From Clostridia bacterium (GTDB lineage: Bacteria; Bacillota; Clostridia; Oscillospirales; Acutalibacteraceae), in contig JAFQQM010000001.1 in NCBI GenBank assembly GCA_017410585.1, positions 7,343 to 71,342 of the forward strand: a stretch of 64,000 nt of DNA. Direction: 5' to 3'. Made by a program: the position numbers and the translations under genes. Below, piece by piece: positions 27,217 to 61,333 of the stretch. The notes under the pieces are model-generated. The model was not told the origin of the DNA, searched no databases, and saw only the letters and a list, made by a program, of their open reading frames with translations. Every line of letters begins with the position of its first letter. The first letter of the stretch is position 1.

Positions 27217-27239
27217 CCCCCGCCCACGTTGGGCGGGGG
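27217..27239 (-). other. GC-rich stem-loop between the capsid and holin genes
   Basis: CCCCCGCCCA-ACG-TGGGCGGGGG, a perfect 10-bp stem with no U-tract. Confidence 0.7.
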
Positions 27240-27247
27240 ACGGGGGA

Positions 27248-28162: not shown

Positions 28163-28186
28163 CGTTGTTTCTCCTTTTCTTTTCGT

Positions 28187-28909: not shown

Positions 28910-28926
28910 CGTCGTTTCCTTTCTTT

Positions 28927-29295: not shown

Positions 29296-29296
29296 T

Positions 29297-30052: not shown

Positions 30053-30055
30053 CGT

Positions 30056-31147: not shown

Positions 31148-31165
31148 AAAGTCACTCCTTTGTCG

Positions 31166-31540: not shown

Positions 31541-31661
31541 CAATGCTTGCCTCCTTTCGCTTTGAGCATACCACGTTACTGCCGTGCAAAACGGATAGCC
31601 ACCGCCTTGCCGGCAACTGTAGCCCGCCTGCACTCCGGCTGTAAAAGATTTGCTCATACCC

Positions 31662-31690
31662 TTGATTTTTTTGCACAAAAGGCTTATAAT
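31662..31690 (+). promoter_or_regulatory. Sigma-A promoter for the kinase gene (TTGATT-N17-TATAAT)
   Basis: -35 at 31662-31667 and -10 at 31685-31690. Confidence 0.65.
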
Positions 31691-31733
31691 GGTATCCTAT
31701 CTGTTTACCCAAACGTATTTGGAGGTTGTCTTT

Positions 31734-39772: not shown

Positions 39773-39807
39773 AAACGCCTGCTTCATCGAAAAAGCAGGC
39801 GTTTTTT
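39773..39807 (+). terminator. Intrinsic terminator
   Basis: AAACGCCTGCTT-loop-AAGCAGGCGTTT-TTTT. Confidence 0.85.
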
Positions 39808-39951: not shown

Positions 39952-39980
39952 TTGACACCGCCGCAAACATTCTTTATAAT
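39952..39980 (+). promoter_or_regulatory. Perfect-consensus sigma-A promoter P1 (TTGACA-N17-TATAAT)
   Basis: TTGACA at 39952-39957 and TATAAT at 39975-39980. Confidence 0.7.
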
Positions 39981-40060
39981 ATTGGTATAATAATCTTGTA
40001 TAACTTTTTTTGTTCAAAATTGTCATTTTGACGAAATTTTGCGTTTAAAAATTATAATCC

Positions 40061-40089
40061 TTGACAAATTAGTGATTAAATGTTATAAT
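40061..40089 (+). promoter_or_regulatory. Perfect-consensus sigma-A promoter P2 (TTGACA-N17-TGtTATAAT)
   Basis: TTGACA at 40061-40066 and TATAAT at 40084-40089 with a TG extension. Confidence 0.75.
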
Positions 40090-40091
40090 GT

Positions 40092-40107
40092 ATGAAACCG
40101 GTTTCAT
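40092..40107. promoter_or_regulatory. cre/LacI-family operator palindrome ATGAAACCGGTTTCAT
   Basis: A perfect 16-bp palindrome whose core TGAAACCGGTTTCA fits TGWAANCGNTNWCA. It starts 3 nt after the P2 -10 element. Confidence 0.7.
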
Positions 40108-40197
40108 AAACTTGAAACCTCGTTTACCGTATGATACCGGAAGGCAGAAATGCTTGCCGGTCAGCGATACCCACCCGTAACGCAAGGAGGACCCGTT

Positions 40198-43100
40198 ATG
40201 AAAAGATCCATTCGCGCCCTGATGAAGAAAGGCCTGCCGCTGTTAATGACGGCGGTGCTGTTGCTTGGCTGCTTCAGTATGCTTGGCACAGCGGCGTATT
40301 CCTCGCCGGTCACCAACGGCGGCTTTGAGGAGACCGACAGCCTCGGTTATCCGATCGGCTGGCTGTTGCAGGCGAATACCGCTGTTTCGGCTGTCCGTGT
40401 TCCGGCGGGCGGTCAGAGCGGTGCATGGCTGCGTTTGCCTGCCGGCTCCGACGTCGCTGTCGTTGAGACGGAAGAGTCGTATGCCTTGGCGGTGGATCCG
40501 TCCTCGCCTTATACGCTGTCTTTCTATGGCTGGGCAGAAGGCGACCTGATCCCGACGGTCGTACAGTTGCAGGCTGACGGTACCGGCTCGGCTGACGGCA
40601 ACCTTGAGTTGTCTGCGGGCGTCGTTTCGGATACGGCCGAATGGACCGAGCGAGAAATCACTTTCGTAACCTCCGCGGATACCGTGGCGGTCATTTTGCG
40701 TTTTACGGCGATCGGTGGTAACGCCGGTCTGGACGGTGTCGACCTGCAGGGAGGGCTGTACGCCGATAACTCTTCGGTCATTCTCCGACCGGAAAATATC
40801 GTCTACGGGTCTGCTGTCAACAACAATCTGCTGGTAAACGGTGACTTTGAAGACGGCACCACCAAATGGGACGTCAGCGCCGGCGGCAGTATCATCGGTG
40901 CCGGCTTTGCGCACGGCGGCGAAGGTTACGCCGTACTCGACCGTTCCGGCGGTGCGGGTACCGTTGATCTGTTCACCGAACAGTTTCCGGTGCAACCCAA
41001 CACCGAATATACCATTTCCTACTGGAAATACAGTGAAGCGCAGACCCAGACGTATTGCACCATTCGGTTGTGCAACGCTTCCAACGGCATCATCAGCAGT
41101 TCCAACAAAGGCACCGGTCTGATCGCCACCGAGGGTTGGCAGCAATATAGTTGGACCTTCACCACCACGGCGGAGACCCGCTATGTGCGGATCGACTTCC
41201 AGCACAACGCCGGTACCGGTATCAGTTATATTGATGACGTTACCGTTACCGCCGCCGGCTCGGATGAAAATATCATCCCCAACGGCGATTTTGAAAACGG
41301 GATGTCCAAATGGGTCAACGGCAGCAGCGGCGGCGCCACCGGCTCGGTGGCCGTTTCGGTGGGTGCTTACGCCGGCAACGGCGCGCTCAAACTCGACCGT
41401 ACCGATCGCGGCGGCACGCTGTACGGTATGTCCAACCAGTTTGCGGTGCAACCCAACACCGAGTACACGGTCACCTACTGGGAAAAGGTCACCGCCATCG
41501 GTCAGGCGTACGTGGCGGTGCAGGAATTTGGCACGGCCGGTCACCTCGGCGGCACCAATTTTAACGTGAAATACAACACCGTTTCCACTCCGTGGACGCA
41601 GAAGAGTTTCACCTTTACCACCAAAGCAAACGCCACCGCCATCCGTATCGACCTGTACATCAACGACGGTGCCGGTATTGCGTACTTTGACGAGGTCACT
41701 GTCGTACCGACCCAGTCTATCGGTACCGAGCCGGATACGCCCGATCTGCCGGATGACATCACCAATCTCGTTCCCAACGGCGATTTTGAGCAGCAGTTTG
41801 CCAACTGGCAAAAGGTCAACGACGGCAGTTTCGGTAACGTGACTATGTCCAACGTTGCCCACGGCGGCGACTATGCGCTGAAACTGACCCATACCGGCAC
41901 CGACGGCCAGACCGTTGCTGTCAACTCCAACCTCGTTCCGGTGGAGCCGAATACCGAATATATCATCACCTACTGGCAAAAGATTGAATCCCGCGCCCAG
42001 TCCTATCTGCTCATCTACGAGCACAGCCCGAGCAGTTATACCAGTCTCGGCGTGCAAAACGTCGTTTCGCAGGTGATGGATTGGACGCAGAAGAGTTTCA
42101 CCTTCACCACTTCCGCCAATACCGATTCCATCCGCATCGACTTCAACTGCAATGCGTATCGCGGTGTCGTGTATTTTGACGACGTGGTGCTTTGCAAGAC
42201 CGCCGACCTGCCGGTGGAGGAAAAGGACCCCGACGACCACGGCGGCGATCTGAATCTTCCTTCCAATGCCACCAATCTGCTGGCAAACGGTGCGTTTGAC
42301 GTCAACACCAACGGCTACAACCTAAACGGTGCGGCGTCGCTGGTCAACAAGACGCTGAAACTGACCGACGCGGTCTCTTCCAACTACGTGATGACCACCG
42401 TGCCGGTCAAGGCAGGGGAAAGTTACGTGCTTTCCTTCTACGTCTACGTTTCCAAGGTGACCGCCGGTTTTGATTTCAGCGTGGCGATGTTCGGTAACGG
42501 TACGGTCAACGGTGGCACGGTGGAATGGGTCGTTCCGTCCATCAAGGAAGCCACCGGCGATTGGAAATACGTTACCTACAAATGGACCGCCGCCAACACC
42601 GGCAACGTCCAGATCGCGTTTAAAAACTACAGCAGTACCGCCGGCGGTACCTATTATCTGGACGATATCTCGGTGTACGAGGTGATCAAGACCGGCAACC
42701 TGATCATCGATCAGGGTCACGACGCCACCTTTGATAAGGCGGGGCTGGCCGGTTGGATGCTCAGCGGCGCCAACGTGTCGTGGGACAGCGCCGAGCAGGC
42801 GATGAAACTGGACCACCAGAATATGGCGGCAGGGGAGACCACCCACAACGCCTACGTCAACGTCAACCCGTTGCTCACCATCGAGCCGAATACCAACTAC
42901 CAGTTCAGTTGGAAACATAAGACCAGCGGCACCCCGATCTCGGTGATCATCCTCACCCTGTACAACGGCAGTACGCAGGTCGGCGTCAAGCAGATCAACT
43001 TAAGCCGCAGTGAAAACTGGGTGGCAGACGACTGGATCCTGAATTCCGGCAACGCTACCTCTCTGCGTATCGACCTGCAGACGCAGGGCGGCGAAGCCCC

Positions 43101-46100
43101 CGAAAACCGCGGTATTTTGTGGTTTGACGATCTGTCGGTCCGCGCCACCAACGAGGCGGCGTATACCGGCCTGTTAAACGGCGACTTCGAAAATGCGACC
43201 GATCTTCGCTTCTGGGCGGTGCTCGGCGGTCATCCGTGCATCTCCACCTCGGTGGTGCATGCCGGCATCAAGGCACTGATGCTCGATCGCGGCTATATGA
43301 CCGACCCGAACAACTCCGCCGTTTCCGAAGCGATTGCCCAAAACGGCATTGCGGTCGAAGGCGGCAAGAGTTACCAGATCAACTATTTCCAGAAGATCGT
43401 CGGCGGCGGTCAGATCTTTGTCAAGATCGTAGAATACAACGCCGCCGGTAACCGCATCTCCAACACCAACTACAACATTACCCACGTCACCGGTGACGTG
43501 GATTGGAAGAAGATGGCTATCCGTTTCCAGACCCGCACCGACGCGGTGGCCATCGGTATCGAACTGTATAACAACCTCGGCAACGGCATCGCCTATATTG
43601 ACGATATCAGCATGACCGAGATCGATTCCATTGTCGATCCGCTGGTCCCGCAAAACGGCGACTTTGCCTACCGCGATTTCAATAAGTGGAAGGAAGTCTC
43701 CCATCAGCCGACCGAACGTAACGGTCAGACGCTGGCCGGTCAGGATACCGTTGCCGGTCGGTTTGAGTTCCACGAAGACGAGGCGGGTCTGTCCGGTATT
43801 GCCGGCTTCAGTTCGCAGGGCTTCGGCCGTATCGAGTCGTGGGGCGTGATGAAGTACTACGACTTGAACGGTCAGCGTACTACTTCGGGCGACTACTTCG
43901 GTATGAACTCCGCCATCACCCCGATTGCTCAGCCGAACGGTGCTTATGCGGTGGAACTGTATCTCCGTACCAATGCGGAGGCGCGTGACCGTCTGGTGCG
44001 CGTGATGATCACCCGCTATGACGATCAAAACGGCAATCCGGTGCAGATCACTTCGGCCCCCAACACCGTATTTGACCTCCGCTTGGACGATACCGACGAC
44101 TGGCAGAAGATCAAGGTGTGGTTTGACGGCAACGGAGCGGATTACGTCACCGTGACCGTGCTGATGTTTGACGGTGACTCCGGCGAGACCGCCGTGATCG
44201 ACGTCGACTGCGTCTCGATGACCACCTTGTCTTCCGAGCCGATCGGCGGCAACTACGATATGCAGATCGGTGAACTGGGCGGCAGTCCGGCTAACTGGTC
44301 GAAGGGCGGCCACAGCGGCTCGACGCTGACGCTGGTCGAATCCCCGTCCGGTGTTGCCGGCGATATGGCGGCCAAACTGACCTATCCGACCAACGACTAC
44401 GAGCATACCGAAATGCCGTATGCGGTGGCGATGTCTCAACTGGTGCCGGTCAAGGCCGGTCGCGTGTACGAGATCAGTTACTGGGCCAAGGTCAACGGCT
44501 ACGCCCGTACCAACGGCTGGTTGGACGTTATCCAGTTTAAGGATGCCAAGCAGACTTCGGCGGTCAGCGGTTCTCCGAACGGTATGTATCGCCAATGGGC
44601 ACAGTATAAAGATACTTCCACTTGGCAGAAGGTCAGTTTCACGCTGCGTACCACCACCAAGTTTGCGGTGGAGGATATCTATCTCCGCCTTGATTTCGCT
44701 ATTCGCGGCGAGGGCGAATTCCTTTTCGATAACGTTTCGGTCCGCGAACTGACCGACGAAGAGACCGCCCCGAACTTTGACTTTGAAAACGATCTGAATA
44801 ACGACGATATTCCGGATACTTGGTATATGAGCCTTGGCCGCGATATGGTCGGTTACCGCGAGATCGACGATACCTTCTGGCACGACGGCAAGCAGAGTAT
44901 GCATATCGTCCGCCAGAGCGCCTCGGAGCACGGCTTCGTGGATTCTTGCACCCTGTTTCCGGTCACCGCCGGCTACGTGTACGAGTTCTCGTATTGGTAC
45001 GCTTCCTGCAACGCTTCTCCCGAGGCGTATATGCGGATGGATATGTACTTCTACGACGAAAACGGTAACAAACTGATGGAAAACGGCGCCCAGCGCTACG
45101 TCCGCGGCCGTCAGGCGACCCTCAACGGCAACAGCGAGCGGGATGCATGGTCGCAGAACTACACCCGTAGCGAAGTGCCGAGCGGCGCCGTCTACGCCTC
45201 CTTGCAGTTCTACTACACCAAGGGTGACTCCGAGGTGTGGGTGGACGATATCTGCGTCGTGCCGGTGATGGATTCGCCCGCTACTGCCGATACCACCTTC
45301 AACATCATTACCCACAGCGATTTCCATGCGGTCACTTCGGATGGCGAGATTCCGAAATGGTCGTTGCTGTCCGACTCCGGTACCGCCGATTTCTCGGTGG
45401 TCAACAAGCCGGAGGATGCCGACTACGATAAGTACGACAACGCCTACAGTTATTTTGATGAGAATCAGCAACTGCAGACCGAGTACTACGACGACTACGG
45501 CCGCTTAACGGTGACCGACGGTCAGCATTATATGAAGTACACCACCACCGGCGTGATGACCAACTACCAGTATCAGGTGCTTGGCCGTTACCGCAGTGAT
45601 AAGTCGGCTACCGCCGAGGTGCGCTTCTACGACTACAAGGGCACGCTGATCGCCGAAAAGACCAAGCAGATCGACCTCGCTCCGACGGCGGGCGAATGGG
45701 CGGAGTACAACTTCGACTTCATCGCTCCGAGCCATACCTACGTCAGCGTGTTGTTGGGTCTGGACGAAGCGGGTACGCTGGAGACCGATAACCTGCTCAT
45801 TATGCAGACCGGTCAGCCGCTCACGCAGGGTGCTTGGTCAGGTAAATGGGTCTGGTACAACGAAGACCCGAAGCAGGAAGCACAAAACCAGTATCGCTTC
45901 TTCCGCTACGAATTCGAACTGGATGAAGAGATCACCTATGCACCGTTGCAGATCACCGCAGACGACCAGTTCACGCTGTACGTCAACGGGGAAGAGGTGT
46001 GCAACACCATCAACACCACCGACGAGTGGTCTAACGTGCAGGTGCTGTTCCTCACCGGCGAAAACGATGAGGGCGAAGAGGTCAATTACCTCCGCAAGGG

Positions 46101-49100
46101 CAAAAATATCTTTGCCATCAAGGTAATGAACGGCGTTTCCGAAGCCGGTCTGATCTTCGACGGTAAGTGGACCACCGCCAGCGGTGCGAGCGTGTCGATC
46201 GTTTCGATCAACGACGAGAGCATCCGTGCGACCAAGACCAACGATCCGGGTAACATCCGCGTTGAACCGCAGGATGACGCCAAGGGCAACAAGTGGTATG
46301 CGCTGGATTACGAGATGACCCTGACCGACGAGCCGGTTGCCGAGAAATGGTCGCTGACCCGTTCCTTCGGTGTGCCGCCGTGCCAGCCGTGGGGCAACAT
46401 CTTCTATACCTCCTCGCTGTACAGCCACAACTCCATCGAGATCACCAACTTGGTGGGGGACAACGCCACCGTTACCGACGGCGTGTACGAGTTTGAGATG
46501 AGTTTGATCCTCAAGGAAAAACTCACTTCTTCGCTGCCGCTCAAAGCGACCATCTGGGTCAAGAACTCGGTCAACCAAGCCTCTTCCGGCAGCCTCGTAC
46601 CGGTGACCAACACCGATATGACCGCGTGGCCGGTGGGTCAGGAATTCACCGTCAAGTTCCGTATGCGCGTGCCGTCCTACCTTGAGAGCGGACGCTATAC
46701 GTTGCAATGGGACGATACCTATATCAGCATCTCCAACAGCGATATCACCGACGGCAAATTCATCAGTTTCCGCCTGATCAACGAGACTTCTTCGGATGAA
46801 AAGACGGTGGCGGAGATGCAGATGTTTAACGGCGCTCCGACTATGATCGTCAACGGGGAGCCGGTGTCCTTCTGGGCGTATTCCCGTCCCGACTACAACC
46901 AGTTCACTTGGGATCACGAAGCGGCGATGATCAATTCCGGTATGGAAGTGTACGTCGTCCGTCAGGGCGGTCTGGGTAAGAACTCGCTGGATTTCTGCTG
47001 GCCGGCCGACGGCGTTGTGGACTACGACGCATTTGACGACCCGATCTACGAGACGCTCTCCAATAATCCCGATGCCTACCTGTGTGTGCAGGTCGGTGTC
47101 TTCGCTCCGGAATGGTGGTTTGACGCCCATCCGGAAGACCGCGTACTGTGCAGTACGGCGGACGGTTTCAACCGCTATGCGGAATCCAACTCCTTCGCGT
47201 CCGAGACCTTCAACGTCGCGGCCGGCGAAGTGGTGCGCAAACTGATGGAACACATGAAGGAGCAAAGTTATTACTCCCGCGTGATCGACATTCAGGTCAC
47301 CTGCGCCACTTCGTTTGAAGGTATGTATTGGAGTTCCCAATCGCTTACGCAGTTTGCCGACTACAGCGAGCCGTTCATCAAGGGCTTCCAGAAATGGCTG
47401 GAGCAGAAGTACGGCACGGTGGAGGCTCTGCAGAAGGCGTGGGGGGACAACACCATCACCACCTTCTACGACTACGAGGACTACGATTGGTCCCAGTGGA
47501 GCGAATGGGTCAAGCAGGGCTATTCCGAGATCGAACGCTGGCGGATGGTCCTGCCCGAGTGGGAAGACCATATCAAGGACGTTCGTATCCGTCCGCTGAC
47601 CTATCCGGAGCAGGTGGCATACATCGAAGCCTCCGGCAATAACGGCACCTTCCTCAATATGAGTAAGGGTGTCGAACAGCAGATTCAGGATAGCAACGAC
47701 TACCTGATGGAGACCATCACCGATGCCTACCTCTACTGGGGCGGTATCGTGGATGAAGTGCTGGAAGGCGAAAAACTGATGAGTTGCTACAACGGCTACC
47801 TGTTCGCCGGTGCCGGCGCGCAGGATATTCCGTCCCAGCACACCGCCTTTACCCGCTTGCTGGAGTCCGGTCTGTACGATATGTTCGTCTCGCCGGCTTC
47901 GTATGCCGAGCGTGACCTCGGCACCTCGGATACCTTTATGGGCGCGCAGGATACCATCCAGTCCTACGGTAAGATGGCCATCATCGAGGAAGACCACCGT
48001 TCCAGCCTCAACCGCCCCTTCGGTGCGGCATGGGATGCGGGTGACGACCTCGGTGTCGGCGCTACCCGTACGATGGAAGAATTCCTGCAGCAGGTCAAGA
48101 AAAACACCGCCAACGCCATGGTCAACGGCAACGGCGTGTGGATGTTTGATATGCAAGGCGGCTGGTACGATGACGACCAGTTCTATCAACTGTCGCAGGA
48201 GATCAAGGAGGAATGGGATATTTCCCAGTTCCTCGATAAGGATCTCACCTCGGAGGTCGCTTACTATATCGACGAAGATATGACCACCTATTTTGTTCGT
48301 GACTTTACCGGCAAGACGGCACAGCAGATGGTGTACAGCGGTTTCCGTATGCAGCGCAAAGAACTGCAACGTCTGGGCGACAGTTTCGACGTCTACCTGA
48401 CCTCGACGCTGGCCGCCGATAAGGTGCCGGATCACAAGATCAATATCATCTTCGGTGCGTATGAACTGACCGCCGAAGAACGTGCCGGTATCGAGCGCAA
48501 CCTGATGAAGGACGGTAAGATCGTCGTTTGGGCGTACGCCAACGGTCTCACCGACGGCAACGTCAACGACATCGAACTGATGTCCTCGCTGATCGGCATT
48601 CCGCTGGTGCTGGATGACCGCTACGGCAACGATACGGTCATCATCACCGATGAAAGCGCCGATAAGAATGCTCTCGGCTATATGACTAACGGCATCACCG
48701 GTATGGTCTACGGCGCGCAGGAATCCATCGAGCCGTACAACCAGTCCCCGATCATCTACGGCGACGCCTCGCGGATGGATAGCACCTACACCGTCCTCGG
48801 TCATATGCGGGATAACGGCGCCCCCGGTCTGATTGCCAAGGATATGGGCAACTGGACCAGCGTCTATTCCGCCGCCACGTCCATTCCGGCGGAGATGATC
48901 CGCAATCTGATGGCGATGACCGACGTGCACACCTACACCGACGACCTGTCGATGAACGTGTTCTCCAACGGGGCATACGTCACGGCGCATTCCGCTTCGG
49001 AAGGCACCAAGACCCTCAAATTGGACGGCCGCTACGCTGTCTACGACGTGTACGCGGGTGAGTTCGTGTCGATGGATACGGACACCATCACCTACGAAAA

Positions 49101-49686: not shown

Positions 49687-49690
49687 AACC

Positions 49691-51178: not shown

Positions 51179-51198
51179 GAAAGGGGGAGGGTTAAACG

Positions 51199-52101: not shown

Positions 52102-52103
52102 CG

Positions 52104-53255
52104 ATGGCTAATAAGACCCAATCCTACCGTGAGCCTCTGGGCAAAGCCCCTCGCATTGCGATCGGACTGTTGCTTGGACTGCAGATCATTGCTCTGCTGT
52201 TCAATATCGCTAACGGCGGCATCCGCTGGCCGGATCTGTCGCAGGGCTTGACCCCCACCGCCGTTTCCGACCTCGGCGCGGTCATCGGTCTGTTCCTGCC
52301 GGCGCTTCTGGCGATCGGCCTGCTGTTGGTGGTCACCATCCACGATGGCGTTGCCCACCGCGAAACGCCGCTCAGCGTCGTGCTTCGCTGGATCTTGCGC
52401 TTCCTGCTGATCGTGTGGTCGGCACTGGTGCTGTTTCCGGTCATCTGGATGCTGTATTCCTCGCTTCGCACGGCGATGGAGTTTATCGAAAGCCCGTGGG
52501 CGCTTCCCACCGCCTTTGATTTCTCCAACTACGTCACCGCGTGGAAGGAATCCAATTTTGCTTCCTACGTGCTCAATACGGTGCTCATCACCGGCGGCAC
52601 CACCGTGCTGTTCTTCCTGATGCTCACCACCACCTCCTACATCCTCGGCAAATACAAGTTCAAACTGAACAAGGTGTTCAACGGTTTTTACTTCGTTGCC
52701 ATGATGATCCCGTCCATCCTCGTCCTCGTCCCGCTGTATTTCCAGTTGGAAGGGGTCGGCGAGTTGGTCAACGAGATCATTCTGGCGATCACCGGCGAGG
52801 CGGGTACTTTCAGTATGACCGACAACCGCGTGGTGTTGCTGATCGTGTACGCGGTGCAGGCGTTGCCGCCGTCCATCTTCTTGGTCACCGGCTTCGTCCG
52901 TAGCATCAATAACAGTTTTCTGGAAGCCGCCTATATGGACGGCGCAGGGGAGTGGTACATCTACCAGAAGATCATTCTTCCGTTTATCAAACCGATCGTG
53001 TTGTTCCAATGCCTGACCGTGTTTATGGCGACGTGGAACGAATACACGATGGCGTTTACCTTCCTCGGCCTCACCGAAGAACACCACACCATCTCGGTCG
53101 GCCTGCAACACATCACCGAGATCTTCAGCCGCGGTCAGGAATTCGGCGTTATCTTCGCCGCTCTGACCATTTCGATGGCTCCGATTTTGGTGCTGTACGG
53201 CATCTTCCAGAAACAGATCTTAAACGGCACCGATTCCGCTGAAGGTCTGAAATAA
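52104..53255 (+). CDS. Carbohydrate ABC transporter permease (MalG-like) with an extended N-terminus
   Basis: EAA loop (EAAYMDGAGEWYIYQKIILP). It carries about 100 extra N-terminal residues with additional hydrophobic helices. Confidence 0.88.
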   Translation: MANKTQSYREPLGKAPRIAIGLLLGLQIIALLFNIANGGIRWPDLSQGLTPTAVSDLGAVIGLFLPALLAIGLLLVVTIHDGVAHRETPLSVVLRWILRFLLIVWSALVLFPVIWMLYSSLRTAMEFIESPWALPTAFDFSNYVTAWKESNFASYVLNTVLITGGTTVLFFLMLTTTSYILGKYKFKLNKVFNGFYFVAMMIPSILVLVPLYFQLEGVGELVNEIILAITGEAGTFSMTDNRVVLLIVYAVQALPPSIFLVTGFVRSINNSFLEAAYMDGAGEWYIYQKIILPFIKPIVLFQCLTVFMATWNEYTMAFTFLGLTEEHHTISVGLQHITEIFSRGQEFGVIFAALTISMAPILVLYGIFQKQILNGTDSAEGLK

Positions 53256-53276
53256 CACTTTATTTTAACGGGATTT

Positions 53277-53302
53277 CCCCGTGCTGTATGGACAGCACGG
53301 GG
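53277..53302 (+). other. Intra-operon GC-rich hairpin without a U-tract
   Basis: CCCCGTGCTGT-ATGG-ACAGCACGGGG, an 11-bp perfect stem. Confidence 0.7.
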
Positions 53303-53349
53303 ATGTCTCGCGTTTCCATTGAATTTCATTCAGAGGAGATTTGATATAA

Positions 53350-56300
53350 ATGAAAGCGGTTTCCCATTTAAGTAAACCTATAAAACGGATTCTTTCGATC
53401 GGTCTGTCGCTTTGCTTGTTGCTGGCGGCGGTACCGGCCGTTTTGCTGCCCGGTTTTGCGGCATCCTCGGTTGCCGGTGCAGAACCTCCGACCGAACTGA
53501 CCGCCACCTATCAAGGCAGTAATCTGATCACCAATTCGTCTTTTGACAGTTCGTCGCTGAGTTTTTGGAATGCGAATTCCTCCACCGGCCTGAACCGTGT
53601 CACCGATCCGGTGGAAAGTGATTACGCGCTGAGGGTAAACCAGTCATGGTCTGTCTTTAACAAGCCCAACACCCTTTTTGCCGTCTCCGACAGCATCAGC
53701 GACGTGACCGGCGGTGCCACCTACGAATTCAGTGCCAAGGTGTATAATCCGGATACCACGGCTCAGTCGACCGCGTATCTGGTGCTGACCGAAAGCACCG
53801 GCACCACCACTTGGTCGACGGCCGTGCAGGGTACGGTGTCGGAATGGACCAAGATATCCGGTATCATCACGCTGGATGCGGCCACCACCTCGGTGACGCT
53901 TGCTTTTTACTTCAAACTTTTTGATGCCGACGCGGATAACGAGGAAACGTGGTATATGGACGATATCTCTCTGTATCGTACCACCGAGCAACTGATTACG
54001 GCATCGGATACCACGGTCAACACCACCTTTGACAGCGATATCAAAACGTGGATGCTTAACCAGCAACTGTCCGATTCCGACCTCAGTATCCCCACCGCCG
54101 CTTACCGTCGGGATACCACCTACGTCCGTAGCGGTGCCGGTAGCCTGTATTTCGGCAAGGATGCTCCCGAAGCCCCTGTCTATCTGGATTCTTCGGTGAA
54201 GATTCCGGTAGAGGAGAATAAGGATTACACTTGGGGTCTGTGGTACACTTCTCACGACAGTACCGCTACGGCGCGTCTGGACGTGTTGTTGTACGATAGC
54301 AACGGTGTGCAGACGGGCGTTCTCTACGGTCGTGAATTTATGCTTTCTCGTGCGGATACGTTACACGATTGGAAAATGGTTGCCACCACCGAAGCCATGC
54401 CCAGCGGTACGGCGTATGCGTCCTACCGCTTGCATATTGAAAGCGGCCGTGCGCAGATCTTTGTAGACGACGTGTTCGGCTACGAGAGCACCGGCAAACT
54501 GGTTATTGGCTCGGTCACGGCCGGTGAAACGGTTGCGGCCGATCTGCTGACCGCCGGTTACACCTATTGTGCCAATATGGCCGGCTCGCTGGCCTTTACC
54601 GACTTAAACGGCAACGCCCTTTCCGGCTTCTCTGTCATCGCTGACCAGAACTTCACCGTTCCTTCCACGGCGGTTGCCGCTTCCTTCACCCCCGCTTCGT
54701 CCGGTATACTGGAATTTGAGTGGTTGAGCAGTCCGACACAGGATGACGCCGGTTGGACGGCTCAGGTGGCTTGGTACCCCGAGGACGAGCCGAATAGCGG
54801 CACCCCCAAACTAACCTACTACCGCCTCAGTTTTTACGTGGAAAAAGCGGTTCGTCGGGCAACCGTTCAGTTGGCGGCGCCTAACAATATCAAGGGCTTT
54901 TATCTCAACGATGTGGGCGGCTTTGTCATCAACAACGTCCCGCTGACCGGTGATAACGCCACCAAACGCATCGCGGCTTCGACGGTGGATATCTCCAATA
55001 CCCTGCATTTCGGCAACAACCTGCTGGCTACCGCCGCCTACCACAGTGGTGATGCCAATTTCGCCGGCTTGATCGCTCAGATCGACGTCGAGTATACCGA
55101 TGGCACGGTTGCCCGTTTCGGTACCGGCTTGTCCAACACCGTGACCACCACCTCGTCGATGGCAATCGCGGCCGGTGACAACCCCGACATCATTGTACAG
55201 AACAACCAGAGTGCCAATTGGTATGCGACCAACGATACCAGTGGCTGGATCTGGAAACCGGCACAGATGCGCGGTACGCCGCCGTTTGACGGCAAGATCG
55301 GCTCGGTTGCCTATGACTGGGCATACGACCTGTTCAATCAGCGTGCCATCGTTTCCCCAAGCACCACGAACGTGACCGTTTCCGGTGTGGCAGGGGAGAA
55401 GATCTCGGCACTGGTGCCGTATACCGACCTGAAAAACACGCCGGTCAGCCCCACCCGTGTCCGTTTGTTTATCGGTGATACCTACTACGCGACCTCCACG
55501 ATGACCGTCGCCACCGAGACCGACGGTGCCGCAGACGGCAACGGTCTGCTGAAGTTGACGGTGGATGTTCCCGATTACCTGCCGACCGGCAACTATTTGG
55601 TTCGTCCGTACCATTGCGATCTCGACCTACTCTCTGCCGATCGCCTCTTGAATATCGATCTCACCGCTTCCGGCAAGACCGCCGGTATTGGCAAACTGAC
55701 AACGGTCACGGTGGCCGGTGCCGATACCGAAACGGTGGAAAATGCGGTGGATTCGATGGTCAACGGCGGTTTCGAAAACGGCAGTAACAACTGGTCGCTG
55801 TCCGGCACCGGTGCAACGGTTGTCGGTTCGTCCTTCGCGCAAGACGGCGAAAAGTACGGTGTACTCGACCGTAGCACTTCGACGGCAACCGCTCAGTTGT
55901 ACTGCAATCAGTTTGCGGTACAGCCCAATACCGAATACACGCTGAGTTTTTGGAAATACAGCGAGGTCGCGACCCAAACGTATTACACGATCCATTGCTG
56001 CAATTCCTCCAATGGGATTATCACGTCCCAAAACGGCGGTACCGGCTACGTAGCCACCGACGGCTGGCAACAGATCACCCGTACCTTTACCACCACGGCG
56101 GATACCGCGTATCTGCGTATCGACCTGTCGCATAACGCCGGTGCTTCGCAGGCGGTCAGTTACGTCGATAACGTGTCTGTCTGCGCTACCGCCGATCCTT
56201 CGGTCAACCTGTTGCCCAACGGCAGTTTTGAAAACGGTATGACCGGTTGGGCCAGCGGCGGTGCCGCACCTGCCTCGGTTGCCACCTCTCCTGCCACGCA

Positions 56301-59300
56301 TTCCGGCAACGGAATGCTCAAGTTGGAGGATGCCAACGGCAGTGCCTACGCTAACTCCTATCTGCTGAGCGTTAACGCAAACGCTACCTACACGCTGTCT
56401 TATTGGCAGAGAACGACCGGTGCCCCCACCACCTACGTCAATCTGCACTATGTGAATGGTAGCGGTAGTTATTCCTCCTTCTGGAACAAAAACGTAACCT
56501 ATAATGCGTACGGCTGGACGCTGAAGACTCATACCTTTACCACAGCGGCCGATACGAAGCAAGTGCGTATTGACTTTAACGTCAACGCCGGTTCCGGCGG
56601 TGTGGTTTACGTTGATGACGTTACCCTCACCACCACGGTGAATGAGTCGGTCGGTACCACTGCCGATAAGACGGTGCTGACCGTCAACGGTATGAAGCAA
56701 AGCCCTGTGATGTACCTTCGCACGTTCGGCAAGAGCAAGGCGTATTACGATTTCGACGTGCTCTCCGCTTACGCGGCAAGCGGCGTCCGTCTGTATGCCA
56801 CCTTCGGCGGTATGCTCGGTGACGTTTCCACCACCGGGTCCATCCCCGTCTGGAACGAGGACGGCAGTATCAACACGGCCGCTCTGGATGAGGACGTTTA
56901 CGAGATCTTGGATGTCAACCCCAACGCGATGGTGCTGTACAACATCGATATGGATGCCCCCGACTGGTGGAAGACAGCCAATCCCAACGAATGCTTCACC
57001 TACACCGATGCCACCGGTAGCCATACGGCTGTTTCGTGGGCATCGACCGCCTATCGCAACGACGCGGTCGCGGTACTACAGCAGATCGTGAATTACCTGT
57101 ATAACGAGGCTCCTTACCGCCACCGTCTGTTCGGTATTCGCTTTACCGGCGGTAGCACCTACGAATGGATCACCAACGGCACTCCGGAAGGCACCGCCTT
57201 CGACAGCACCGCCGCGATGGTTGCCGCGGTCAACGCCGAACTGGGTGGTACTTCCTATACCGCCAATGAGATCCGCACCGCCATCACCTCTGAGGGAAAC
57301 ATCGCCCTGCTGAATATGAACAGCGAAAACGGCCGTATCGCCTACGCCTACAACCGCCTGATGTCCCAGTCCATTACGGATAGCATTCTGGCGTATGCAG
57401 ACGTGGTGAAGACCGTCTCGGGCGATAATTGGTTGGCGGGTGCCTACAACGGCTACCTCTGGAACTTCACCTCTTCCGAGGCGATCGGCTCGGCACACAC
57501 CACCGTGGGTGACCTGCTGGAAAGCGATTTGATCGACTTTATCGCCTCTCCCGTGACCTACGGTGAGCGTACCGCCGGTCACTATCCGACCGGTATGGCT
57601 CTGTCCGAGAGCGTGCAAGCGCACGGTAAACTGTATTTCTTAGAGCAGGATAACCGTACGCTCCGTGCCGCCGCCAGCAACACAGAAGCCAACTCGGTCG
57701 GTAAGGTCGATACGCTGAAAGAATCGGTCGACCAACTCACCCGTGATCTGGCGATCGACTTTGTCAAGAACAACGGCTGGTGGACGCTGGATATGGAAGG
57801 CGGCTGGTTCTCGGATGCCGCGATCACCGAGCGTATCGGTCAGATCAAATCCGAGTACGATCTGTCCTTGGCACTGGATACCGGCACGAATAGTGAGATC
57901 GCGGTGGTTATCGGTGACGATACCTACGATTATTTCTACAACGGTCACCTCGCCGGCAACTCCTCCAAGTCCTCCTATCTGCTGACTCGCCTGTACAAGC
58001 AACAGCGGATAGAACTGGCTAAACTCGGTACTTCTTACGATACCTACGCGGTGTCCGATGTGAACGCGGTCGACTTTGTCGACTACAAGTTGACGGTGGT
58101 CATTTCTCCGTTTGGTATGACCGCCGAGCAGGCAAACGCCATTAAAGCCGGCGGCGGTACCGTCTTGTGGATTTATCTTCCGGGTCATTTCGGTGACGGT
58201 ACCTCCCTCACCGACTACACCCTGACCGTCGGTGACCAGTACGCCCCGATGCAGGCGACCTACGGTGACTACCTCTTCGGTACCGCTACCTACGGGACCG
58301 GTCCGAAGGTAACCGTTGACGCTACCGGTGCCACTGTGCTGGCCGATTACGTCGGTGGTACGCCGGCGGTGGTTTCCAAGGCGGTTACCGGCACCTACAA
58401 CTACACCTCCGTTTACTCGGCGGTTCCGGCGGTTCCGGCCGTCCTACTCCGTCAGCTGGCGGATGAAGCCGGCGTCCACCGCTATACGGCGGATAAGGAC
58501 GCGGTTGTGGAAAGCAATAACAGTTACCTGACCGTTACGGCGCTGTACGGCGGAGAGAAGACCGTCACCCTGCCCGAGGCCAAATACGTCTATAACGTTT
58601 TGACCGGTGAGAATTACGGCGTTACCGATACGTTCACCGTCACGCTGGACGATAACCAGACGGCTATCTTCCGCGTGACCGACGAGGCGTACACCTCTCC
58701 GGCGGCAACCCCGTCCGACCACGGCGGCGATGACCAACTGCCTGCCGGTGCGGTCAACCTGCTCAACGGCGGCGACTTCTCGTCGACCACCGCGTCCGGC
58801 TGGAATAAATCCGGTAACTTTGCTACCACCGCGACCATTGCCGACGGTATGCTCTCTTTTGCGAACACCACGGCAACCTCGTATTTGACCTTCAATACCG
58901 TCAATCTCATCCCCGGTGCGACCTACACCTACTCGCTGTACTATTGGGTCACCGAAATTTCCAATACGCAGGTGGATATCCGTACCCGTGTGTTGAATGG
59001 TGCCGACGTGAAGGATCTTCATATTCAGGAACATTGGATCACCAAACTCAGTGATGGTTGGAACCGCCTGTCGGTTACCTTTACGATTCCGGCGGATACG
59101 ACCGAAACCTCGATGCGCGTGTGGCTGTACAATGCGGCCGCCCCCACCAACAGTGCATATCCGGGCACCATCTACTACGATGACGTGTCGCTCATCTGTG
59201 AACAGCACTACATTGGCATCGACAGCGAGGATGAAAACGACGTCTTAAATGCGGTGTATTACAACGTCAATATGAATCCCTCCGGCACAGACTACAGCCG

Positions 59301-61095
59301 TGATAACGTCGTGATCGATACCGACAGCACCCTCCCGTTGAAGGGCGGTGTGTACTCCTACACCAAGTTCCCTGTCACGCTGTACGATGCCGGTACCGGC
59401 ACCACCGCAACCTATTATTCCTACGTTGGTGGCGGCTCCGACTATGATCAGATCTATATGTACACGGCGGAGAGTGCCTCGGCTGACCCGTCCACCACGC
59501 CGATGAAGGAGGCCGCCAACGGCTCGATCTTTACCATTCCGGCCGGCAGTTCCTTCACCTACCGCGACACCACTGTCTACTTTGTGCAGGATTTTGTACT
59601 GACCAAGAGCGGCAACACGTGGACCCCCAAGGTAACCGTGACCGACCACACCACCGCTGTGGATGGTGGTCGTTACATCCCCGACGGAATGAACGCGGCT
59701 GACGATATTTTTATGAGTACGGGTGAACTGACCGCCGGTGCCGGTGGCTTTACGCTGGGTAACGGCGGCTCCAACCCGACCGGCTCGTCCCCGATCTTTG
59801 CCGACGGTATCGTGTCCGCCGAGGACGTCACCGGCCAGATCGCCAACGCGAACTACTGGTTTATCCAGACTCCGGCCATCACGGTCGAGGCGGGCGCTAC
59901 CTACCAGTTGTCCTACTACATCTGGGTGACCGATGCCACCTCGTTGCAGTACGATATGTACGTGGATTCCGCCATCGCGCCGGTCAAGGCTTCGTTGGAT
60001 TTTGCGCTCAACCGCGCCGGTAAGACGAACGTCAAGATCGGTGCAAACTACTATGACCTGACCGCCTCCTCCGCCAATACCGCGGCGATCACCGCGGCCA
60101 CCGGCGGCTGGAAACTGGTCACCTACACGTGGGAAGCGGCACAGAGCGGCACCGGTAGTTTCTATCTGAAGAACTACGGCAGCGGCCCGTCCACCTACTA
60201 CATCGACGACGTCGCGCTGTATCAATTGGAAGAGTCGACGGTCGAGTTTGAGGGCGCCACCGCCACCTTGTCCGACCGTATCCACCTCAATTTCCACGTC
60301 TCTTCGCCCAAGACCTTCGCTTTGAACGACGAACTGAAGGTGAAATTCACCTACACCGGCCGTAAGGGCACGGTGACCGAATGGGTGAACGTGGATACCG
60401 ATACGGTCGAAAACGGCAACTACGTCTTCCCGCTTAAGAGTCTGGTCGCCGCTTATATGGCGACCGAGATCACCGCCGAGGTCGGCGTCGGCACCACCGA
60501 TGCCTTCACGGTGAAGGATTCCATGACCTACTCGGTCCGCGAATACGGCAACGCCATCCTTACCGGCGACTATGCGCAGAAGTATAAGGATGCCGCTTCG
60601 ATGATGCTCAACTACGGTGCATGGGCACAGCAGTACTTCGGTTATAACGAGGAAGACCTCGCCAACTCGGTACTGCCCGAAGCCGATCGCGTCAGCGACA
60701 CGGCAACGTGGCTGGCACAGATTGATAATATCAATCAGTACAAGGCGACCGTCACCGACAAGTTGGATAGTTTTGTCGGCTACACCTTGCTGTTGCAGGA
60801 TGGTACGGCCCTGCGTATCTACTTTAACGAGCAGGTGACCGCCACCGTCGACGGTGCGGCTGTCACGGCGGTCAAAGACGGCGACAGCGAACGCTGGTAT
60901 ATCGAAATTGCCGGTGTCGGTGCGGCGGATCTGGACGTGCCTCATACGGTCGTGATCAACGGCACGATGACCATTTCCAACCTGAGCGCGCTGACCCCTG
61001 CCCGTACGGTTGCCAACAGCGATAGCCGGTCGGAGAATTTCCGCAATATGTGCATCTCGCTGATTCTGTATGCACAAATGGTCAATCAACTGTAA
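53350..61095 (+). CDS. Giant (2581 aa) secreted multi-CBM, GH42-like glycosidase-like protein, paralogous in part to 40198..49686
   Basis: It has a signal peptide and CBM-like modules (NGGFENGSNNW...QPNTEYTLSFWKYSE...YVDNVSV) closely resembling those of giant 1. The TIM-barrel-like core has STYEW and YFLEQDNR motifs. There is no C-terminal TM helix. Confidence 0.85.
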   Translation: MKAVSHLSKPIKRILSIGLSLCLLLAAVPAVLLPGFAASSVAGAEPPTELTATYQGSNLITNSSFDSSSLSFWNANSSTGLNRVTDPVESDYALRVNQSWSVFNKPNTLFAVSDSISDVTGGATYEFSAKVYNPDTTAQSTAYLVLTESTGTTTWSTAVQGTVSEWTKISGIITLDAATTSVTLAFYFKLFDADADNEETWYMDDISLYRTTEQLITASDTTVNTTFDSDIKTWMLNQQLSDSDLSIPTAAYRRDTTYVRSGAGSLYFGKDAPEAPVYLDSSVKIPVEENKDYTWGLWYTSHDSTATARLDVLLYDSNGVQTGVLYGREFMLSRADTLHDWKMVATTEAMPSGTAYASYRLHIESGRAQIFVDDVFGYESTGKLVIGSVTAGETVAADLLTAGYTYCANMAGSLAFTDLNGNALSGFSVIADQNFTVPSTAVAASFTPASSGILEFEWLSSPTQDDAGWTAQVAWYPEDEPNSGTPKLTYYRLSFYVEKAVRRATVQLAAPNNIKGFYLNDVGGFVINNVPLTGDNATKRIAASTVDISNTLHFGNNLLATAAYHSGDANFAGLIAQIDVEYTDGTVARFGTGLSNTVTTTSSMAIAAGDNPDIIVQNNQSANWYATNDTSGWIWKPAQMRGTPPFDGKIGSVAYDWAYDLFNQRAIVSPSTTNVTVSGVAGEKISALVPYTDLKNTPVSPTRVRLFIGDTYYATSTMTVATETDGAADGNGLLKLTVDVPDYLPTGNYLVRPYHCDLDLLSADRLLNIDLTASGKTAGIGKLTTVTVAGADTETVENAVDSMVNGGFENGSNNWSLSGTGATVVGSSFAQDGEKYGVLDRSTSTATAQLYCNQFAVQPNTEYTLSFWKYSEVATQTYYTIHCCNSSNGIITSQNGGTGYVATDGWQQITRTFTTTADTAYLRIDLSHNAGASQAVSYVDNVSVCATADPSVNLLPNGSFENGMTGWASGGAAPASVATSPATHSGNGMLKLEDANGSAYANSYLLSVNANATYTLSYWQRTTGAPTTYVNLHYVNGSGSYSSFWNKNVTYNAYGWTLKTHTFTTAADTKQVRIDFNVNAGSGGVVYVDDVTLTTTVNESVGTTADKTVLTVNGMKQSPVMYLRTFGKSKAYYDFDVLSAYAASGVRLYATFGGMLGDVSTTGSIPVWNEDGSINTAALDEDVYEILDVNPNAMVLYNIDMDAPDWWKTANPNECFTYTDATGSHTAVSWASTAYRNDAVAVLQQIVNYLYNEAPYRHRLFGIRFTGGSTYEWITNGTPEGTAFDSTAAMVAAVNAELGGTSYTANEIRTAITSEGNIALLNMNSENGRIAYAYNRLMSQSITDSILAYADVVKTVSGDNWLAGAYNGYLWNFTSSEAIGSAHTTVGDLLESDLIDFIASPVTYGERTAGHYPTGMALSESVQAHGKLYFLEQDNRTLRAAASNTEANSVGKVDTLKESVDQLTRDLAIDFVKNNGWWTLDMEGGWFSDAAITERIGQIKSEYDLSLALDTGTNSEIAVVIGDDTYDYFYNGHLAGNSSKSSYLLTRLYKQQRIELAKLGTSYDTYAVSDVNAVDFVDYKLTVVISPFGMTAEQANAIKAGGGTVLWIYLPGHFGDGTSLTDYTLTVGDQYAPMQATYGDYLFGTATYGTGPKVTVDATGATVLADYVGGTPAVVSKAVTGTYNYTSVYSAVPAVPAVLLRQLADEAGVHRYTADKDAVVESNNSYLTVTALYGGEKTVTLPEAKYVYNVLTGENYGVTDTFTVTLDDNQTAIFRVTDEAYTSPAATPSDHGGDDQLPAGAVNLLNGGDFSSTTASGWNKSGNFATTATIADGMLSFANTTATSYLTFNTVNLIPGATYTYSLYYWVTEISNTQVDIRTRVLNGADVKDLHIQEHWITKLSDGWNRLSVTFTIPADTTETSMRVWLYNAAAPTNSAYPGTIYYDDVSLICEQHYIGIDSEDENDVLNAVYYNVNMNPSGTDYSRDNVVIDTDSTLPLKGGVYSYTKFPVTLYDAGTGTTATYYSYVGGGSDYDQIYMYTAESASADPSTTPMKEAANGSIFTIPAGSSFTYRDTTVYFVQDFVLTKSGNTWTPKVTVTDHTTAVDGGRYIPDGMNAADDIFMSTGELTAGAGGFTLGNGGSNPTGSSPIFADGIVSAEDVTGQIANANYWFIQTPAITVEAGATYQLSYYIWVTDATSLQYDMYVDSAIAPVKASLDFALNRAGKTNVKIGANYYDLTASSANTAAITAATGGWKLVTYTWEAAQSGTGSFYLKNYGSGPSTYYIDDVALYQLEESTVEFEGATATLSDRIHLNFHVSSPKTFALNDELKVKFTYTGRKGTVTEWVNVDTDTVENGNYVFPLKSLVAAYMATEITAEVGVGTTDAFTVKDSMTYSVREYGNAILTGDYAQKYKDAASMMLNYGAWAQQYFGYNEEDLANSVLPEADRVSDTATWLAQIDNINQYKATVTDKLDSFVGYTLLLQDGTALRIYFNEQVTATVDGAAVTAVKDGDSERWYIEIAGVGAADLDVPHTVVINGTMTISNLSALTPARTVANSDSRSENFRNMCISLILYAQMVNQL

Positions 61096-61108
61096 GGAGG
61101 GGAAACCA

Positions 61109-61252
61109 ATGAAACAATATCAAAGTCCGGAATGGTTGGTCTTCCGCCTTCCGATGCTGTCTGTTTTGACCGCCAGCGGCGATCCCGACGAATGGGAGAC
61201 GGATATCGTCCCCCCGACCGAGGACGATTACGATCCCAACGCCGAAGAGTAA
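61109..61252 (+). CDS. Small acidic peptide (47 aa), last ORF of the operon
   Basis: AAGGAGGGG RBS 8 nt upstream of the ATG. Sequence: MKQYQSPEWLVFRLPMLSVLTASGDPDEWETDIVPPTEDDYDPNAEE. A terminator follows. Confidence 0.55.
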   Translation: MKQYQSPEWLVFRLPMLSVLTASGDPDEWETDIVPPTEDDYDPNAEE

Positions 61253-61260
61253 GCCCCAAT

Positions 61261-61290
61261 GCTCCCGATGCGAAAGCGTCGGGAGCTTTT
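61261..61290 (+). terminator. Intrinsic terminator ending the giant operon
   Basis: GCTCCCGATGC-GAAA-GCGTCGGGAGC-TTTTCT. Confidence 0.85.
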
Positions 61291-61304
61291 CTCTTGCGTA
61301 ACAC

Positions 61305-61333
61305 TTGACAAAAGTAACCAATCCCGATATGAT
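61305..61333 (+). promoter_or_regulatory. Sigma-A promoter (TTGACA-N17-TATGAT) for the LacI-family gene
   Basis: TTGACA at 61305-61310 and TATGAT at 61328-61333. Confidence 0.6.

Follow-up and report, generated by a model that had tools for sequence, protein, structure and literature searches.

Two giant GH42-like, carbohydrate-binding proteins flank a sugar importer in a probable Gram-positive polysaccharide-utilisation locus from uncultured Clostridia

Gram-positive polysaccharide-utilisation loci (gpPULs), as described for Roseburia and Eubacterium rectale, bring together degrading enzymes, an ATP-binding cassette (ABC) carbohydrate transporter and a LacI-type regulator, and capture their substrate through carbohydrate-binding modules (CBMs) borne on secreted enzymes (PMC5320581). 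In Bifidobacterium longum, HypBA2 (family GH121 of the glycoside hydrolases, GHs), which acts on extensin beta-L-arabino-oligosaccharides, is an extracellular exo-glycosidase of several domains, tethered to the membrane by a C-terminal transmembrane anchor, and the small oligosaccharide that it releases is taken up by an ABC transporter of the same cluster (PMC7263609). The locus considered here resembles both. It is an apparent operon of about 21 kb at positions 39952-61290, + strand, of a 64-kb stretch of DNA from an uncultured Clostridia bacterium of the gut (the window, to which all coordinates refer unless another locus is named), in which two giant proteins, A and B, flank the genes of an ABC sugar importer. 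A first-pass annotation of the window had called this layout Gram-positive PUL-like, and the layout agrees with the published gpPUL definition (PMC5320581), the enzyme activity being a prediction. The locus is probably a gpPUL in which the giants capture and cleave a polysaccharide at the cell surface and the ABC system carries out the import.

The kind of system is one already known; the enzyme clade is unstudied, and the giant architecture is unusual but recurrent. Unlike the gpPULs of Roseburia and E. rectale, the locus has as its enzymes two giants of one uncharacterised clade only, it lacks an intracellular GH, and its substrate cannot be read from CAZy families (PMC5320581). The HypBA2 system differs in its (alpha/alpha)6 catalytic fold, in having far fewer binding modules and in carrying its own intracellular enzymes within the cluster (PMC7263609). 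Six open reading frames (ORFs) make up the locus, and their products, as well as their sizes, are those listed by the first-pass annotation:

40198-49686, + strand: giant A, 3162 aa, ATG start after an AAGGAGG ribosome-binding site
49691-51178, + strand: solute-binding lipoprotein (SBP), 495 aa
51199-52101, + strand: ABC permease 1, 300 aa, Pfam BPD_transp_1
52104-53255, + strand: ABC permease 2, 383 aa, BPD_transp_1, with an N-terminal extension
53350-61095, + strand: giant B, 2581 aa, secreted
61109-61252, + strand: ORF of 47 aa, acidic in its C-terminal half; strong Shine-Dalgarno sequence, AAGGAGG, 7 nt upstream

The longest possible ORF for A starts at 40150, 16 codons upstream of the ATG chosen here. 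In GenBank, A (MBQ2938777.1) and B (MBQ2938781.1) are entries of a Clostridia metagenome-assembled genome (MAG), and both are named only "carbohydrate binding domain-containing protein". The exact A and B proteins are present on several independent contigs, so an origin of these long frames in assembly errors is ruled out.

The two giants are built from related parts, of which the following could be delimited:

40312-45210, + strand: CBM4/9-type jelly-roll array of A, 9 detected modules, aa 39-1671
45829-46281, + strand: CBM67-like beta-sandwich of A, aa 1878-2028, Asp-Asp pair intact (ITADDQFTLYVNG)
46813-49146, + strand: GH42-like core of A, three domains, aa ~2206-2983
49543-49647, + strand: C-terminal transmembrane anchor of A, a hydrophobic run (aa 3131-3149) followed by a Lys-rich tail
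54748-55197, + strand: CBM67-like domain of B, first Asp of the pair lost (AAPNN)
55759-56577, + strand: inserted CBM pair of B, between the CBM67-like/Ig region and the core, 48% identical to A modules 2-3
56617-58692, + strand: GH42-like core of B, aa ~1090-1781
60220-61092, + strand: C-terminal module of B, 290 aa, two beta-sandwiches with helical hairpins

In A, a signal peptide is followed by the CBM array, the CBM67-like domain, an immunoglobulin-like (Ig-like) region, the core, an InlB-B-repeat-like domain (a match below the Pfam cutoff), a Pro/Asp/Glu-rich linker and the C-terminal anchor. The order in B is signal peptide, two CBMs, a degenerate CBM67-like domain, an Ig-like region, two further CBMs, the core, a CBM, a region of no assignment, another CBM and the C-terminal module. 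Pfam CBM_4_9 (PF02018) marks six stretches in A (E 4.8e-53) and four in B (E 6.5e-33), and a hidden Markov model (HMM) built from the modules themselves finds nine in A and six in B. Two stretches of A of about 200 aa each (aa 1124-1351 and 1672-1877), which have no domain match, are probably divergent CBM modules; apart from the sub-threshold InlB-B-repeat match, Pfam gave nothing significant on inter-domain pieces. The nearest solved relatives of the A array are 2zez and 2zew (E 1e-7), modules of 144-147 residues from an "S-layer associated multidomain endoglucanase" that we take to be the CBM16 modules of ManA.

The first-pass annotation had noticed CBM motifs that are paralogous between the giants. 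The motifs it quoted occur in both, and the two proteins share a tandem pair of CBMs at 48% identity (E 8e-71); the inserted pair of B contains those of its modules that are most like A modules 2-3. Binding modules account for most of the mass of both proteins. Many A-type relatives also finish in a hydrophobic segment. B has a signal peptide but no anchor recognisable in its sequence, which is a point against surface cleavage by both giants.

That the cores are TIM-barrel-like and resemble GH42 had also been proposed in the first-pass annotation, and several lines of evidence now bear this out. In A, the Pfam GH42 model (PF02449) scores 32.8 bits (cutoff 21), over model positions 2-185 of 376 only. 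A direct search with the same model gave no match in B; the B core is, however, recognisable by its similarity to the A core, with alignments at 30.5% (E 3e-52) and 26.5% identity (E 3e-11). Among solved structures, sequence searches matched only GH42 beta-galactosidases (E 1.6e-6 for A alone and E 4e-17 with a family profile), and the alignments were confined to the N-terminal half of the barrel. The structural evidence extends over the whole core. As a check on the fold, AlphaFold prediction and Foldseek comparison had been suggested; by these the A core matches a glycosidase fold, with GH42 best. The model (pLDDT 77.5, pTM 0.85) returned GH42 structures as all of its top matches (3tts, 8ibs and 5xb7; E 1e-25 to 1e-21), in alignments of 824-872 columns that cover all three domains with TM scores of 0.68-0.71 (target-normalised) and 12-14% identity. 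GH35-type proteins of the same architecture came next, and GH167 (9whd) was much weaker (E 5.5e-12).

The likeness to the GH42 enzymes of Bacillus circulans (3TTS) and B. infantis (Bga42A, 8IBS) and to the B. animalis alpha-L-arabinopyranosidase (5XB7) comprises the (beta/alpha)8 barrel, an alpha/beta "trimerisation" domain and a beta-sandwich, together with two catalytic Glu residues on the barrel, the acid/base after beta-4 and the nucleophile after beta-7. In A and B these residues are predicted from the family alignment to be:

47317-47319, + strand: acid/base E2374 of A
47986-47988, + strand: nucleophile E2597 of A
57163-57165, + strand: acid/base E1272 of B
57643-57645, + strand: nucleophile E1432 of B

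E2374 is kept in 160 and E2597 in 153 of the 162 family sequences, and D2599, two residues after the nucleophile, in every one of them (162/162). A and B both retain the Glu pair plus D2599, R2601, K2592 and other family-invariant residues. Some features of the cores weigh against a glycosidase of the usual clan GH-A kind, in which an Asn-Glu signature marks the acid/base. The family does not show this signature; across the 162 sequences, the position just before the acid/base Glu varies among E, G, S, A, F and Y, with Phe in A and Tyr in B. The residue that follows it is Trp in 146 of the 162 relatives, but Gly in A. Residues 197-211 of the A core model, around the acid/base loop, have a pLDDT below 50, and no activity is known for any member of the clade among the solved structures or in the literature searched. 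Together, the alignment and the model nevertheless lead us to conclude that the cores are predicted retaining glycosidases of the clan GH-A type, related to GH42 but forming a distinct clade.

This clade is large. When representatives of clusters at 50% identity were searched exhaustively with HMMER and the family alignment, 3,778 of them matched at E<=1e-30, and the top 150 were all full-length at ~600 bits or more; the family is large on this evidence, even though a word-indexed search with the core had seen 11 distant members only and its repeat with the alignment added none.

A less novel interpretation is that the cores are divergent members of GH42 proper, that is, beta-galactosidases or alpha-L-arabinopyranosidases that trim galactan or arabinogalactan, with nothing new at the level of the enzyme. 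We consider this unlikely. It would account for the PF02449 score above cutoff in A, for the same assignment precomputed for most relatives, for the name "beta-galactosidase" given to one relative in GenBank, and for GH42 structures being the best fold matches. Against it, the identity to those structures is 12-14% only, the profile aligns only with the N-terminal half of the barrel, and B lacks a Pfam GH42 match altogether. The family motifs are G-x3-E-W around the acid/base and K-x4-E-x-D-x-R around the nucleophile, in place of the N-E and M-E of GH42; A and B differ from GH42 enzymes in having no Asn before the acid/base Glu and an E-x-D-x-R nucleophile motif. They are, moreover, extracellular and 4-5x larger, and carry CBM arrays and a CBM67-like domain on the same chain, whereas GH42 enzymes are typically intracellular and without CBMs. 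The history of the group also counts against membership of GH42 proper: earlier "distant GH42" lineages became families of their own, such as GH164 (PMC6442616, PMC7105311), which was earlier called GH42_dist (PMC6442616) and whose founding member is Bs164 (PMC7105311).

Other named families were compared with the distinct clade to which we assign the cores. GH164 (the Bs164 beta-mannosidase), GH167, a GH35-type beta-1,2-glucosyltransferase of Ignavibacterium and archaeal exo-beta-glucosaminidases all share with it a clan GH-A barrel and GH42-like accessory domains. The GH35-type proteins are good fold matches to the A core. GH164 and GH167 differ in having no sequence-level match and were rejected: the PDB profile search contained no Bs164 or GH167 chain, and the GH167 fold match is much weaker than those to GH42. 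GH167 is, we believe, what the "GH42-like" enzymes of carrageenan loci have become. GH173, which is GH5/GH30-like, and GH165, a beta-propeller, were ruled out; GH147, with founding members such as WP_029428318.1, is a TIM-barrel family for which no solved structure came up.

It might also be argued that A and B serve chiefly in adhesion or as scaffolds for glycan binding, with catalytically dead GH-like cores. The dominance of binding modules in their mass would agree with this, as would the missing Trp after the acid/base Glu of A, the degenerate CBM67-like domain of B, and the existence at related loci of partner proteins that carry CBMs but no core (1375 aa in L017 and 1183 aa in L015). However, the retention in both A and B of the two Glu residues, D2599, R2601, K2592 and other invariant positions, and the tight link to an oligosaccharide importer, from which we infer that products are released, make dead cores very unlikely.

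As read from the sequence, the catalytic unit also includes a CBM67-like domain, which the first-pass annotation did not see. About 150 residues of A (aa 1878-2028) match residues 128-272 of SaRha78A (3w5m) at E 1.7e-6, a segment that is presumably its CBM67 module. The same domain of A matches both domains of a lectin from Pleurotus ostreatus and the N-terminus of Bacillus RhaB, and it is 33% identical (E 4e-9) to the N-terminal domain of a GH78 protein from another locus. The similarity to the CBM67 modules of GH78 enzymes includes the motifs W-x-W...R-x-F-R...A-D-[DN]...V-N-G; the difference is that the domain is joined here to a GH42-like core rather than to GH78. CBM67, or rhamnosidase-N type, modules bind rhamnose. 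They are described as calcium-dependent, with a conserved Asp pair (PMC4690510, PMC11512411) that is reported to bind calcium and sugar (PMC11512411).

The domain is found in 48 of the 162 family sequences, N-terminal to the core in all but one (P0216). Of these 48 domains, 46 have Asp at the first position of the pair, and all (48/48) have D or N at the second. A, with A-D-D, keeps the pair; B, with P-N, is one of the two domains that lack the first Asp. Two points tell against reading the domain as a sign of rhamnose recognition by both giants. One is this degenerate copy in B. The other is that CBM67-type lectins can be promiscuous; among the references of PMC11512411 is a paper titled "promiscuous binding driven by geometry".

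Further leads to the substrate come from the neighbours of giants at related loci (designated L001 and so on). Orthologous GH78-like (alpha/alpha)6 proteins, 37-73% identical to one another, occur in L003, L014 and L017. In L016 (GCA_017414965.1, 1-28508), rhaM lies directly upstream of an A-type giant, in the neighbourhood of a monosaccharide ABC system, an HpcH/HpaI aldolase, an SDR protein, a 2-hydroxyacid dehydrogenase and a LacI-type regulator, so that, from its gene content, this giant looks to sit within an L-rhamnose utilisation region. Next to the B-type giants of L014 and L015 are Mannitol_dh-family and SAF-domain genes, and a distant family member in L009 has a similar neighbour; we take these genes to resemble UxaB and UxaA, respectively, of hexuronate catabolism. 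Genes for GFO/MocA oxidoreductases are present in L013, L015 and L016.

The CBM67-like domain and these neighbour genes are the grounds for suggesting, tentatively, a rhamnose-bearing and probably uronic-acid-containing glycan as the target; arabinogalactan-protein or gum-arabic-type side chains, rhamnogalacturonan-I (RG-I) stubs and a bacterial exopolysaccharide are equally tentative candidates within this suggestion. Two findings weigh against it: the locus in the window has no rhamnose, uronate or intracellular sugar-processing genes, and the lead is drawn only from diverged relatives. Clan GH-A enzymes cleave equatorial bonds, and for this reason two candidate linkages would fit better than the RG-I backbone itself. 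The first is a beta-glucuronic acid (GlcA) or beta-galactose (Gal) linkage beside rhamnose (Rha), as in arabinogalactan-protein side chains ending in Rha-GlcA, and the second is the Gal-beta-1,4-Rha stub on RG-I.

In a bolder form, which is rather doubtful, A and B would be members of a new GH family, sister to GH42, with a built-in, calcium-dependent, CBM67-like subsite for terminal or neighbouring L-rhamnose and an activity undescribed for the clan. The release of a Rha-uronate disaccharide from arabinogalactan-protein and the cleavage of Gal-beta-1,4-Rha on RG-I would be examples of such an activity, and are as doubtful.

Non-plant glycans, either microbial (bacterial or fungal cell wall, exopolysaccharide) or host mucin-type, are possible targets too, if again tentative ones. 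Bacterial polysaccharides, too, commonly contain rhamnose and uronic acids, L012 has a GH20-like gene close to its giant, and the nearest NCBIfam models for the SBP are binders of the chitobiose or N-acetylglucosamine (GlcNAc) type, although its scores are far below their cutoffs. On the other side, the hosts are herbivore and human hindguts rich in plant fibre, and no sulfatase, sialidase or fucosidase gene is present at any locus examined. The known CBM67 enzyme, SaRha78A, acts on gum arabic, from which it releases rhamnose (PMC4052742).

Two further substrate clues were considered and dropped. The SBP was set aside since its best solved relative, a family-1 SBP (E 3e-15), is unnamed and its NCBIfam scores are so low. 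A galactokinase-like gene at 31650-33032 (460 aa, with GalKase_gal_bdg and GHMP kinase domains) is placed outside the locus, 7 kb upstream, because metK, hom, thrB, lysC, rluA-like genes and a terminator intervene. A cyclase-family gene follows the galactokinase-like gene.

Of a CUT1-type system, which combines a family-1 SBP and two BPD_transp_1 permeases with an ATPase, the locus has the SBP and both permeases. The SBP carries a lipobox-like motif, SATGC, and a long tether rich in Thr and Gly. In permease 2 the ABC membrane domain begins only at residue 177, after a hydrophobic N-terminal extension of at least ~100 aa that the orthologs in L002 and L003 also have. The scanned proteins of the operon and its neighbours included no ABC_tran ATPase; importers of Firmicutes usually draw on a shared ATPase whose gene lies elsewhere.

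The association of giant and importer recurs in other genomes. Orthologs of A are found in a Clostridia MAG from cattle colon (83% identity), a MAG from roe deer rectum (54%) and the human gut "Ruminococcaceae" UMGS1163 (53%), and in these three genomes SBP and permease genes follow A as far as the contigs extend. A scan of the metagenome collection with the close alignment returned only the UMGS1163 contig. More distantly, about 20 diverged giants of 2,000-3,160 aa with the module order of A (CBM array, CBM67-like domain, core) are among the top 150 family representatives. The view of the first-pass annotation that proteins of this size and module count are unusual therefore holds, with the correction that they recur, in ~20 diverged clusters of the top 150. 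A giant followed by an SBP and two permeases is seen in L002, L003, L012, L013, L016 and L017, and the contigs of L001 and L010 end earlier; at every readable giant locus, the SBP and permeases lie directly downstream of the A-type giant.

What comes after the permeases differs from locus to locus. L002 has no further gene there, but an intrinsic terminator; L003 has another giant, L012 a 1732-aa dockerin protein, and L017 a 1375-aa CBM protein whose C-terminus matches the C-terminal module of B. Because of this variation, A, the SBP and the permeases appear from these comparisons to be the conserved unit and B to be an accessory, variable partner. The contexts of small, distant family members (L004, L006, L007 and L009) were only weakly informative.

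The last 290 residues of B have neither a Pfam nor a PDB sequence match. A model of this module (pLDDT 89.9) consists of two beta-sandwiches joined by helical hairpins, and Foldseek returned for it only generic matches to two Ig domains (TM 0.2-0.3), that is, no known fold. Its homologs (P0226-P0237) belong to an unannotated domain family with the motif YSVREYA...MLNYGAxAQxYFGY...LAN, and are either stand-alone secreted proteins of 250-340 aa or fused to BspA-type leucine-rich repeats (LRRs) or to cohesin. The cohesin-fused homologs, together with cohesin and dockerin genes in L013 and L012, suggest a docking or assembly role for the module. L012 encodes a dockerin-bearing partner of 1732 aa (21974-27172) and L013 a small cohesin protein with a Listeria-Bacteroides repeat (6239-7321). 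The gene content of these loci hints that such enzyme systems may be assembled on the cell surface by cohesin-dockerin pairing.

Several elements are expected to govern expression of the locus:

39952-39980, + strand: promoter 1, TTGACA-N17-TATAAT, 12/12 match
40061-40089, + strand: promoter 2, TTGACA-N17-TATAAT, 12/12 match, with extended TG
40091-40106, + strand: putative operator, 16 bp, perfectly palindromic, ATGAAACCGGTTTCAT, 1 nt downstream of the promoter 2 -10 box
53269-53340, + strand: pair of stable RNA hairpins, in the spacer that separates permease 2 from B
61261-61286, + strand: intrinsic terminator, 11-bp stem with 8 GC pairs and a T-run
61364-62341, + strand: LacI-family regulator gene, 325 aa, preceded by a promoter-like site of its own (61305-61333)

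The first-pass annotation had placed the six ORFs, with short gaps, between one promoter region and one terminator, which agrees with the two perfect promoters, the single terminator (the sole strong one 3' of the operon) and the intergenic gaps of 2-94 nt (in order 4, 20, 2, 94 and 13 nt). Perfect TTGACA-N17-TATAAT sites number three in the 64 kb, against 0.01 expected. The third is at 20254-20282, - strand, just upstream of a plsX-like gene (19208-20230, - strand). The rluA-like gene upstream of the operon has its own terminator at 39773-39804. For the LacI-family gene, the start at 61364 was chosen over that of a longer ORF.

The palindrome ATGAAACCGGTTTCAT is predicted to be an operator of the LacI-family/cre type. 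At the orthologous locus L003, a similar palindrome, ATGGAAGCGCTTACAT, lies upstream of the giant, and a LacI gene is also upstream. Control by LacI, as put forward in the first-pass annotation, is plausible given the gene adjoining the operon and the perfect promoter-proximal palindrome. The 14-bp core of the palindrome, however, fits the cre consensus of CcpA, TGWAANCGNTNWCA, exactly, so the site is equally compatible with CcpA. At other giant loci (L012, L013 and L017) the regulators are AraC, a two-component system or ROK.

A possible alternative to a single transcription unit, one that we hold to be on the doubtful side, is that A, the SBP and the permeases form the core unit, with B and the 47-aa ORF expressed or translated separately. 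Two points count against a single operon. Co-transcription of the six genes is predicted from their spacing only, and a stable hairpin precedes B: the 94-nt spacer 53256-53349 folds at -42.7 kcal/mol (z = -8.3), and the second hairpin covers the Shine-Dalgarno sequence of B. Two units would also suit the cre-like site over the start codon of B and the intrinsic terminator that follows the permeases in L002, where a second giant is absent. Yet the spacer has no promoter-like site, no T-run follows the second hairpin to make a terminator of it, all genes are on the same strand, and L003, L012 and L017 likewise have a large CBM protein directly 3' of the permeases. If the genes form one operon, the hairpins may tune B expression relative to the transporter or serve as an mRNA-stabilising element. 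Rfam, searched with the whole operon including these hairpins, matched no family. The cre/LacI-type, half-degenerate site, TGAAAGCGGTTTCC (53351-53364), has 2 mismatches to the promoter palindrome; since 3.1 sites with <=3 mismatches are expected in the window, it could be chance.

The 47-aa ORF is represented in public data by 15 variants, all of 47 aa. Substitutions concentrate in the N-terminal half, and residues 20-43 (LTASGDPDEWETDIVPPTEDDYDP) are invariant in 15/15, a pattern resembling that of purifying selection acting on a genuine, small and acidic protein. An ORF of 58 aa at 61132-61308 is a spurious frame. In L013, a compositionally similar ORF of 48 aa (6054-6200) precedes the cohesin-like gene.

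These observations can be arranged into a working model. Lifting of repression at the palindromic operator would allow the two consensus promoters to drive high expression. A would be held on the cell by its C-terminal membrane anchor, and its N-terminal CBM4/9-type array would capture the polymer. The unit made up of its CBM67-like, Ig-like and GH42-like domains would then cleave an equatorial bond (of the beta-D or alpha-L type) by a retaining mechanism. The secreted B, with its paralogous core, would supply a second and probably different cleavage, and its C-terminal module may serve to attach it to the surface of the cell. Finally, the tethered SBP and the two permeases would import the oligosaccharides, with the ATPase and the intracellular enzymes encoded elsewhere.

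Elsewhere in the window, a phage-derived cluster at 21000-31200, - strand, contains genes for a terminase large subunit (25455-26738), a portal protein (23760-25430) and an amidase (29297-30052), along with several ORFs without a Pfam match, and is probably a prophage remnant. Two adjacent BspA-type LRR surface proteins are encoded at 360-3065, where the GC content is 0.46, as opposed to ~0.57 elsewhere; the stretch may have arrived by horizontal transfer.

For most loci of gut Firmicutes, which break down a large share of the fibre arriving in the hindgut, no substrate can be assigned. The clade to which A and B belong is large (~3,800 clusters at 50% identity) and carries no annotation better than "beta-galactosidase" or "carbohydrate binding domain-containing protein". 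The recurring module order, the conserved link to an ABC importer and the neighbour genes (GH78-like, rhaM, UxaA/UxaB-like and GFO/MocA) offer an entry point, the neighbour genes suggesting a short list of candidate substrates. Should the cores prove to be plain beta-galactosidases, the interest of the locus would fall back to its size and architecture. If their specificity is new, they would add a CAZy family or subfamily, improve the annotation of ruminant and human gut metagenomes, and possibly yield enzymes for pectin or gum-arabic-type glycans. And if they do form a new family with a rhamnose subsite, their giant CBM-array versions would be a way in which gut Clostridia harvest such glycans at the cell surface.

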